From assembly GCF_003334785.1 (NCBI RefSeq), contig NZ_QOWV01000073.1: a stretch of DNA of 800 nucleotides, one strand, 5' to 3'. Origin of the DNA: Escherichia coli. Lineage in GTDB: Bacteria; Pseudomonadota; Gammaproteobacteria; Enterobacterales; Enterobacteriaceae. The position numbers and the translations under genes were made by a program. Shown here one piece after another: positions 1-800 of this stretch (position 1 is its first letter; every line of letters starts with the position of its first letter). A model generated the notes under the pieces. That model was given only the letters and a program-made list of their open reading frames with translations. It did no database searches and was not told the origin of the DNA.

Positions 1-800
1 CTGCTCGGTGCAAAGGTCCTTCCCGGTGAAACCGACATCGCCCTGCCCGGCCCGCTGCCGTTCATCCTCTCCCGCACCTACAGCAGTTACCGGACAAAAA
101 CGCCCGCGCCGGTGGGGAGCCTCGGCCCCGGCTGGAAAATGCCTGCGGATATCCGCTTACAGCTGCGCGATAACACACTGATACTCAGTGATAACGGCGG
201 CAGAAGCCTGTATTTTGAGCACCTGTTTCCCGGTGAGGACGGTTACAGCCGCAGCGAGTCACTGTGGCTGGTGCGCGGCGGCGTGGCGAAACTGGATGAA
301 GGTCACCGGCTGGCCGCACTCTGGCAGGCGCTGCCGGAAGAACTCCGCTTAAGTCCGCATCGTTATCTGGCGACAAACAGTCCGCAGGGGCCGTGGTGGC
401 TGCTCGGTTGGTGTGAGCGGGTGCCGGAAGCGGATGAGGTGCTGCCTGCGCCGCTGCCGCCGTACCGGGTACTGACCGGGCTGGTGGACCGCTTCGGGCG
501 CACACAGACGTTCCACCGCGAAGCCGCCGGTGAATTCAGCGGCGAAATCACCGGCGTGACGGATGGTGCCTGGCGTCACTTCCGGCTGGTACTGACCACG
601 CAGGCGCAGCGGGCAGAAGAAGCCCGGCAGCAGGCCATTTCCGGCGGGACGGAACCGTCCGCTTTTCCTGATACCCTGCCGGGTTACACCGAATATGGCC
701 GGGACAACGGCATCCGTCTGTCTGCCGTGTGGCTGACGCACGACCCGGAATACCCGGAGAATTTACCTGCCGCGCCGCTGGTGCGCTATGGCTGGACGCC
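1..800 (+). CDS. Rhs-family polymorphic toxin core protein (YD-repeat protein), internal fragment of the N-terminal conserved region; partial at both ends
   Basis: Seen in sequence: frame +1 is open for all 266 codons (1..798, plus 2 nt), checked codon by codon; codons are GC3-rich (ctg, ccg, ggc, cgc dominate). Translation: LLGAKVLPGETDIALPGPLPFILSRTYSSYRTKTPAPVGSLGPGWKMPADIRLQLRDNTLILSDNGGRSLYFEHLFPGEDGYSRSESLWLVRGGVAKLDEGHRLAALWQALPEELRLSPHRYLATNSPQGPWWLLGWCERVPEADEVLPAPLPPYRVLTGLVDRFGRTQTFHREAAGEFSGEITGVTDGAWRHFRLVLTTQAQRAEEARQQAISGGTEPSAFPDTLPGYTEYGRDNGIRLSAVWLTHDPEYPENLPAAPLVRYGWT. Established knowledge, recalled from memory and not searched: blocks such as GETDIALPGPLPFILSRTYSSY, GPGW, RSESLWLVRGG, LATNS.QGPWW.LGW, VLPAPLPPYRVLTG, GEITGVTDGA, FRLVLTTQAQRAEEAR, AFPDTLPG, GIRLSAVWL.HDP.YPE.LPAAPLVRY match the N-terminal region of E. 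coli-type Rhs core proteins (RhsA/B/C-like). The ATG at 139..141 is an internal Met codon, not a start; the true start and stop are outside the window. Confidence 0.9.
   Translation, partial: MLGAKVLPGETDIALPGPLPFILSRTYSSYRTKTPAPVGSLGPGWKMPADIRLQLRDNTLILSDNGGRSLYFEHLFPGEDGYSRSESLWLVRGGVAKLDEGHRLAALWQALPEELRLSPHRYLATNSPQGPWWLLGWCERVPEADEVLPAPLPPYRVLTGLVDRFGRTQTFHREAAGEFSGEITGVTDGAWRHFRLVLTTQAQRAEEARQQAISGGTEPSAFPDTLPGYTEYGRDNGIRLSAVWLTHDPEYPENLPAAPLVRYGWT

Follow-up and report, generated by a model that had tools for sequence, protein, structure and literature searches.

The N-terminal plug of an Escherichia coli RhsA/RhsB core protein and the short segment that precedes it

The question raised by this locus is which part of an Rhs protein is encoded at the start of an 800-nucleotide stretch of Escherichia coli DNA (hereafter the window, the whole stretch analysed), and what lies ahead of that part in the gene. 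A first-pass annotation, made from the letters of the window, had placed its first 110 bases at the start of the conserved domain that precedes the YD repeats of Rhs/WapA-type toxins, i.e., the region that plugs or seals the Rhs cage. We conclude, with a probability of about 0.92, that the window comprises codons 52–317 of the core of an Rhs polymorphic toxin (rhsA or rhsB) and that its bases 1–216 encode the N-terminal plug, with corking of the cage, cleavage next to the plug, loading onto VgrG and an orphan status in K-12 proposed from homologues.

An rhsA/rhsB fragment that opens within the plug domain

The window matched rhsA and rhsB of E. coli K-12 alike with 100% identity (800/800 bases, plus strand) in a megablast search of complete E. 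coli genomes. Matches were obtained in 3886 of the 5426 genomes, at a median of three places per genome, in genes annotated as RhsA, RhsB or “RHS element core protein,” and copies at least 99% identical were present in 3180 of the 3887 match-carrying records. The window occupies positions 8001–8800 both in locus L001 (K-12 MG1655, rhsA) and in locus L002 (ER1709, rhsB); the coding sequence starts at 7848 in each, so that codon 1 of the window corresponds to residue 52 of RhsA/RhsB. Frame 1 of the plus strand runs through all 800 bases without a stop, as an internal fragment (window 1–800) of the core open reading frame (ORF) that covers codons 52–317 plus 2 bases of codon 318; its residues 1–30 are LLGAKVLPGETDIALPGPLPFILSRTYSSY, exactly as quoted in the first-pass annotation. 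Because the two copies are identical there (from about nucleotide 100 to about nucleotide 3100 of the ORF), the window alone does not reveal whether it stems from rhsA (b3593) or rhsB (b3482), nor from which strain. The assignment by DNA identity agreed with the NCBIfam model NF041261 (RHS_core), whose curated cut-off of 2000 bits applies to whole proteins: the window alone covered model positions 52–325 (E = 4e-162, 541.7 bits) and the full RhsA ORF scored 2647.1 bits over positions 1–1261, above that cut-off. The rhsA and rhsB genes have been known since the 1980s–90s; both the gene and the domain discussed here were already known, and the first interpretation of the window was supported.

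The plug domain was recovered both from the window and from the whole gene. Pfam DUF6531 (PF20148) matched residues 3–72 of the window (model 9–74 of 74, E = 1.1e-14) and residues 46–123 of full-length RhsA (E = 4.8e-18). The domain starts 4–6 codons upstream of the window (RhsA 46/48), and the part of it encoded here, delimited by PF20148 and by the alignment with Tse5 described below, spans bases 1–216 of the plus strand (RhsA residues 52–123). The domain proposed at positions 1–110 was thus the right one, with its end set too early. Since Pfam RHS_repeat matches in RhsA begin only at residues 318–351 (weakly), followed by 361–392, the plug is a separate domain ahead of the RHS/YD repeats.

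The best solved relative of RhsA was Tse5 of Pseudomonas aeruginosa (8cp6; full-length E = 7e-128). RhsA 48–185 aligned with residues 1–143 of the Tse5 shell chain (8cp6_B) with E = 1e-17 and 44% identity over the plug; this chain starts PVNPMLGSKLLPEEVDFAL (PVNPMLGSK) and its first residue was aligned to P48 of RhsA, PVNPLLGAKVLPGETDIAL. In the structure of Tse5 determined by cryo-electron microscopy the plug consists of residues 48–124 and corresponds to DUF6531 (PMC10684867), while the plug of Pseudomonas protegens RhsA “seals the Rhs cocoon” in the manner of a champagne cork (PMC8765631). We infer that RhsA 48–123 would likewise fold as a cork that closes the YD-repeat cocoon at its N-terminal opening, in agreement with the plug or seal proposed at first.

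Direct reading and column conservation defined the motif G54-x-K56-x4-E61-T-D63-x2-L66-P67-G68-x2-P71-x2-L74-x-R76-x-Y78-x-S80 (window bases 7–87, plus strand), which was also present in the alignments with Tse5, P. protegens RhsA and an Advenella Rhs. The pattern given in the first-pass annotation had all other spacings right and one wrong: it read K-x3-E where the sequence has K-x4-E-T-D (K-VLPG-ETD), so that the literal pattern found no match and the corrected one matched residues 3–29 of the window. Among 73 representatives less than 90% identical to RhsA, residues L53, A55, V57, L58, D63, L66, P67, R76, Y78, S80, Y81, G90 and G93 were each at least 92% conserved; P48, V49, G54 and K56 had been preset by the selection pattern and their conservation is uninformative.

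The window opens at position +5 of the signature P-V-N-P-L-L-G-A-K, four residues past the junction H47|P48 and inside the plug. This junction aligned with the mapped N-terminal self-cleavage sites K47|P48 of Tse5, whose fragments are an N-terminal piece M1–K47, the shell P48–L1168 and a C-terminal toxin (PMC10684867), and H304|P305 of P. protegens RhsA, at which that protein is cleaved (PMC8765631). In Photorhabdus Rhs1 the cut falls at D288|P289, in the sequence PVYVASGE (PMC8636562). By analogy, E. coli RhsA is probably self-cleaved at H47|P48. The P1 residue was variable among relatives (H in 41, N in 41, S in 29). Residues A55-K56 (A4-K5 of the window, bases 10–15, plus strand) aligned with A312-K313 of P. 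protegens RhsA (HPVNPLLGAK and HPVHAATGAK, respectively), the positions of the TseI glutamates required for N-terminal cleavage (PMC8765631). The Glu-Glu pair was absent from RhsA; A55 was found in 96% of relatives and K56 in 100%, the latter being preset by the selection pattern.

Downstream of the plug, bases 217–800 (plus strand, RhsA 124–317) encode the initial portion of the beta-cocoon wall; the first YD/RHS repeat that can be recognised comes further downstream. The alignment with the Tse5 shell ran on over RhsA 124–185 and 286–331, and the RHS_core model was covered without a gap. The GC content was 64.9% in the window (72.9% at third codon positions), about 45–50% in the flanks and 33–41% in the C-terminal tip of rhsA and yibA (L001 6500–13500), which is the classic composite make-up of Rhs elements with their core. 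Two ORFs on the minus strand, of 106 (185–505) and 130 (349–741) amino acids, were rejected as genes, as by-products of coding at 65% GC inside a strongly homologous gene. Rfam gave no RNA family in the window, and the repeat search of the window gave no inverted repeat and, as direct repeats, two short ones of two copies each, which is at chance level. In an 18-nucleotide direct repeat (43–60, CTGCCCGGCCCGCTGCCG; 442–459, CTGCCTGCGCCGCTGCCG; 83% identical) each copy encodes L-P-x-P-L-P; it probably arose by chance in a GC- and Pro-rich ORF. The rhsB gene of ER1709, a K-12 derivative, is annotated as a frameshifted pseudogene (L002 7848–12082).

The 51 codons upstream of the window and their relatives

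The first-pass annotation had rightly stated that a PAAR domain, or a dependence on separate VgrG, PAAR or EagR proteins, could not be read from the window, and had proposed to extend the sequence upstream and look for a start codon, PAAR homology and neighbouring genes of this kind. The extension placed the start codon at 7848, with 51 codons (47 + 4 residues, MSGKPAARQGDMTQYGGSIVQGSAGVRIGAPTGVACSVCPGGVTSGHPVNP) cut off from the window. There is an in-frame TGA two codons 5′ of the rhsA ATG, and, with L001 and L002 compared over 7598–11500, the identity between rhsA and rhsB rises exactly at this ATG, from about 30% to 96–100%, to end about 3.6–3.7 kb into the ORF; for these two reasons the ORF cannot be longer. 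Over the first 153 nucleotides (7848–8000) rhsA and rhsB differ at four positions, all of them synonymous third positions, and the N-terminus of K-12 RhsD is identical to that of RhsA at 48 of 51 residues. There is accordingly no long non-Rhs extension upstream, and the motif falls in DUF6531 of Rhs proteins rather than in another family. The statement that only a short segment precedes the motif in Rhs proteins held for rhsA/rhsB and failed as a generality: P. protegens RhsA and Photorhabdus Rhs1 carry the motif about 290–300 residues in, and a VgrG-Rhs fusion from Advenella has it at about 843.

Residues 2–29 of RhsA (L001 7848–7934 for residues 1–29) correspond to one PAAR-type repeat, the last third of a PAAR domain. 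NF033420 aligned with the N-terminus over model positions 68–94 of 94 only (E = 0.0015–0.003, 17.7–18.6 bits, for a cut-off of 124 bits), Pfam PAAR_motif (PF05488) gave an i-E value of 0.18, and a PDB search with the 51 residues matched the PAAR proteins 4jiv, 4jiw and SalCis10 by their last repeat only. The same PDB search did not match the chain of the Tse5 N-terminal fragment, and the PADLOC defence models gave no match to the N-terminus. By none of the family thresholds does the RhsA N-terminus qualify as a PAAR domain. The His/Cys zinc ligands of a PAAR domain were absent from it; the position of the Cys in the third repeat of three-repeat relatives (KVGC/KVAC) is occupied by Tyr15 in RhsA and by Lys in most single-repeat relatives. 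Neither does it carry the prePAAR signature AARxxDxxxH, since RhsA reads AARQGDMTQY, with Tyr for His; there is no transmembrane segment, and 18 residues separate the repeat from the cleavage site. In the literature, the equivalent segment of Tse5 is a “cryptic PAAR-like domain” required for secretion via VgrG1c.

The 18 residues in question (30–47) form a linker with the conserved sequence G-x-A-C-S-x-C-P-G-G. In Tse5, residues 30–47 are held inside the cavity by the plug and residues 1–29 are disordered (PMC10684867). The Cys-x-x-Cys of the RhsA linker (L001 7950–7967, residues 35–40, A-C-S-V-C-P) was 95–96% conserved in the 73 representatives. It lies in the stretch equivalent to Tse5 30–47, inside the cocoon and beside the cleavage site.

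An exhaustive phmmer search with RhsA 1–145 against 1.84 billion cluster representatives gave 550 matches. Architectures were counted in the best 150 of these 550, of which 118 had a Met start and the PV....G.K signature; such a list is biased to the architecture of the query. A single repeat was found in 97 of the 118, with the signature at residue 47–49 in 90 of the 97 and at residue 48 in 72. Five or six of the 118 had three repeats and the signature at 102–109 (P0095, P0098, P0100, P0115, P0118 and P0051). These three-repeat relatives carry the same G-x-A-C-S-x-C-P linker and plug behind a near-complete PAAR domain, matched by the PAAR model with E values of 1e-14 to 1e-21 (P0095 at 21–94, E = 1.5e-19; P0098 at 5–94, E = 1e-21), and the E. 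coli N-terminus corresponds to their last repeat plus linker. Despite its bias, the list shows that the short single-repeat form is a type conserved in its own right and no artefact of truncation.

In K-12, rhsA is preceded by the divergent yibF, rhsB by nikR and rhsD by ybbP; no vgrG, eagR/DUF1795 or other T6SS (type VI secretion system) gene was found upstream of any of the three. E. coli K-12 and B are devoid of a T6SS (PMC6730261, review). A vgrG next to the rhs gene together with a T6SS in the genome, the mark of vgrG-linked T6SS cargo, was found for the O157:H7 paralogue and for the representatives P0034 and P0095, and is lacking in K-12; for this reason we claim that the K-12 protein works like such an effector, not that it is currently deployed as one. 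In O157:H7 strain PV15-279, a T6SS cluster at aspV contains hcp, vgrG (713 amino acids, canonical domains) and, 75 bp downstream of it, an “RHS element core protein” with an overall identity to RhsA of 71% and with 41 identical residues among the 51 at the N-terminus. This vgrG-rhs junction was recovered (at least 80% coverage) in 2865 of the 5426 E. coli genomes, MG1655 and BL21 matching its rhs half only. A neighbourless rhs gene is also present in this O157:H7 strain, at the yibF locus; over its first 373 bases it does not differ from K-12 rhsA. According to the summary of Ma et al. (2017) in PMC6730261, “neighbourless” Rhs proteins of E. coli are related to Rhs proteins encoded with T6SS2. 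Outside E. coli, the single-repeat P0034 and the three-repeat P0095 both directly follow vgrG, P0066 belongs to an rhs tandem near vgrG and P0051 is neighbourless.

Two further observations concern vgrG-bearing loci. In the cluster of PV15-279 (L003 21606–37364), the annotation lists tssM and tssE (each with a frameshift) and tssG (with an internal stop) as pseudogenes, reflecting either a decaying T6SS or assembly errors. Another locus (L007 1–16989) contains two tandem rhs genes with single-repeat N-termini followed by vgrG and a DUF2169 gene, DUF2169 being the chaperone family of DUF4150/PIPY spikes (PMC11883445).

Proposed working of the protein and rival explanations

Beyond the window, RhsA contains nine stretches of YD repeats (TIGR01643), the Rhs_assc_core (TIGR03696; residues 1170–1247, E = 1.4e-23) and a legible DPxG-x18-DPxG motif (DPIGL-x18-DPLGL), and the C-terminal tip of K-12 RhsA is Ntox34 (PF15606; residues ∼1298–1372, L001 11600–11981, E = 7e-44). 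Judging from the solved homologues, the plug (48–123) would cork a YD-repeat cocoon enclosing the Ntox34 toxin, which would itself be enclosed after aspartyl autoproteolysis at DPxG-x18-DPxG. The chain would probably also cut itself at H47|P48; the plug would then keep residues 30–47 anchored in the cage, and the exposed residues 1–29 would load the effector onto the VgrG spike of a T6SS. As K-12 has no T6SS, this last step cannot operate there and its gene would be an orphaned (“neighbourless”) effector that the T6SS route could not deliver. The 3′ end of locus Z5014 in the first EDL933 genome is of this same K-12/HB101 type, and amplification of Z5014 from EDL933 failed (PMC7216683), which suggests that Z5014 in the first EDL933 record is an assembly error. 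The equation of Rhs-CT5 with the rhsA locus was not used as evidence, the assembly of Z5014 having been questioned (PMC7216683).

Several points weigh against this picture. The roles of the plug, of the cleavage and of docking on VgrG are transferred from homologues that are 44% identical or more distant; in the literature searched, we found no experiments on cleavage, fold or secretion of E. coli RhsA/RhsB and nothing relevant on a K-12-specific function of these proteins. The residues implicated in N-terminal cleavage elsewhere (Glu-Glu in TseI, D288 in Rhs1) are not conserved, RhsA having A55-K56 and H47 instead, the catalysis of this cleavage is undescribed even in the solved cases, and killing by Tse5 does not need it (PMC10684867). 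The PAAR match of the N-terminus is well under the family cut-offs (18 vs. 124 bits). Finally, the presence of intact rhsA and rhsB in K-12 in the absence of a T6SS makes a role independent of delivery conceivable.

The rival explanations concern the segment upstream of the plug, the nature of the plug region and the present function of the gene. The part cut off upstream could have been a complete trafficking module, either a full PAAR domain or prePAAR, a transmembrane segment and PAAR, needing EagR (DUF1795). Such a layout is common in T6SS Rhs effectors (P. protegens RhsA, Serratia Rhs, Photorhabdus Rhs1), the RhsA N-terminus holds the letters PAAR and an AARxxDxxx string, and E. coli Rhs proteins have been termed “PAAR-Rhs” in published in silico work; however, there are only 51 codons, closed by a stop two codons upstream and by the onset of rhsA/rhsB homology at the ATG, the models match the last third of PAAR only, the place of the prePAAR His is taken by Tyr15 in RhsA and by Lys in the O157 paralogue, the 18-residue stretch ahead of the cleavage site is too short for a hydrophobic segment, and the genes upstream are yibF, nikR and ybbP, not eagR or vgrG. 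A complete module is refuted for the rhsA/rhsB locus by its sequence, and we consider it extremely improbable. Just as implausible in our view is that positions 1–110 encode a YD/RHS repeat from the early part of the shell, or resemble the motif by chance, instead of forming a distinct plug. The region does lie inside the Rhs core, it is Gly/Pro-rich like the repeats and the literal pattern first proposed was one residue off, but DUF6531 matches with E values of 1e-14 to 5e-18, RHS_repeat matches appear from residue 318 only, and in the alignment the region falls on the plug defined in the Tse5 structure.

A more serious rival holds that the K-12 gene, plug included, is a functionless relic, kept intact by the recency of T6SS loss and by gene conversion among rhs copies rather than by selection. 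The absence of a T6SS from K-12 and B and of vgrG next to rhsA, rhsB and rhsD speaks for it, as do the identity of about 100% between rhsA and rhsB over roughly 3.6 kb, which fits conversion, and the frameshift annotated in rhsB of one K-12 derivative. RhsA is nevertheless full length, with all processing motifs and the Ntox34 toxin, and is followed by yibA, which we take to be an immunity gene; none of the four differences between rhsA and rhsB within the first 153 nucleotides changes an amino acid, and the 3180 records with copies at least 99% identical include T6SS-bearing O157:H7, at the same yibF locus. We regard the relic as unlikely, although it deserves appreciable weight; it bears on what the gene does in K-12 today and does not conflict with the structural identification of the plug.

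A further and distinctly doubtful proposal is that the 29-residue N-terminus of the RhsA/Tse5 type, a ligand-less third of a PAAR cone, works in an undescribed way. Three effector N-termini may build a three-fold PAAR-like tip on one VgrG trimer, with up to three cages per spike, or a single strand may dock on one face of the VgrG tip. The three-copy cone is conceivable from two weak observations: P0051 has three tandem repeats, each RhsA-like and with Tyr at the usual zinc-ligand positions, and a synthetic three-fold RhsA repeat tiles the PAAR model over 32–94 (E = 8.7e-11). Together with the dominance of single-repeat relatives, both are consistent with an undescribed docking of one third of a PAAR domain.

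The discovery value of the locus is small, as the plug, the cleavage site and the cryptic PAAR-like N-terminus have been described for Tse5, P. protegens RhsA and Photorhabdus Rhs1. The questions left by the first-pass annotation are closed for this locus: the missing region is 47 + 4 residues, with a single PAAR-type repeat that is not a PAAR domain, and there is no linked vgrG or eagR in K-12. Of modest interest are the manner in which this third of a PAAR domain, the most frequent N-terminus of the Rhs subfamily, engages VgrG, and the retention of two intact copies by K-12, which has no T6SS.

Comparison with known systems

The window is RhsA/RhsB of K-12 (NF041261), the gene itself and not a relative, with no difference between them. 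Among the solved systems, Tse5 (PA2684, RhsP1; 8cp6) is like RhsA in its 47-residue N-terminal fragment, its junction X47|P48 with PVNPxLGxK, its DUF6531 plug at 48–124, its YD cocoon and the C-terminal aspartyl autoprotease with an encapsulated toxin. It differs in being encoded beside vgrG1c in a T6SS-positive host and in having a pore-forming toxin and Lys at P1, whereas the RhsA gene of K-12 is neighbourless, in a strain lacking a T6SS, and its product has Ntox34 and His at P1.

The class I prePAAR Rhs effectors (P. protegens RhsA, 7q97; Photorhabdus laumondii Rhs1/Tre23, 7pq5) share with RhsA a homologous plug, the cage and the C-terminal protease, and their cleavage signatures, H304|P305 with PVHAATGAK and D288|P289 with PVYVASGE, are conserved with that of RhsA. 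They have about 290–300 N-terminal residues (prePAAR, transmembrane helices and full PAAR) and need an Eag chaperone, in contrast to the 47 residues of E. coli RhsA, with one PAAR repeat, no transmembrane domain and no eagR.

The BC components of Tc toxins (TcdB2-TccC3, YenBC) also form a YD cocoon around a toxin released by aspartyl autoproteolysis, and the RhsA-type plug is reportedly homologous to a TcB domain (PMC8765631). In the PDB, RhsA matched YenC2 and TccC2 by its C-terminal region only. Tc toxins differ from RhsA in that the TcB domain is a constriction site and not a seal, in that the cocoon is closed by a beta-propeller and in that delivery proceeds via TcA and not via the T6SS (PMC8765631).

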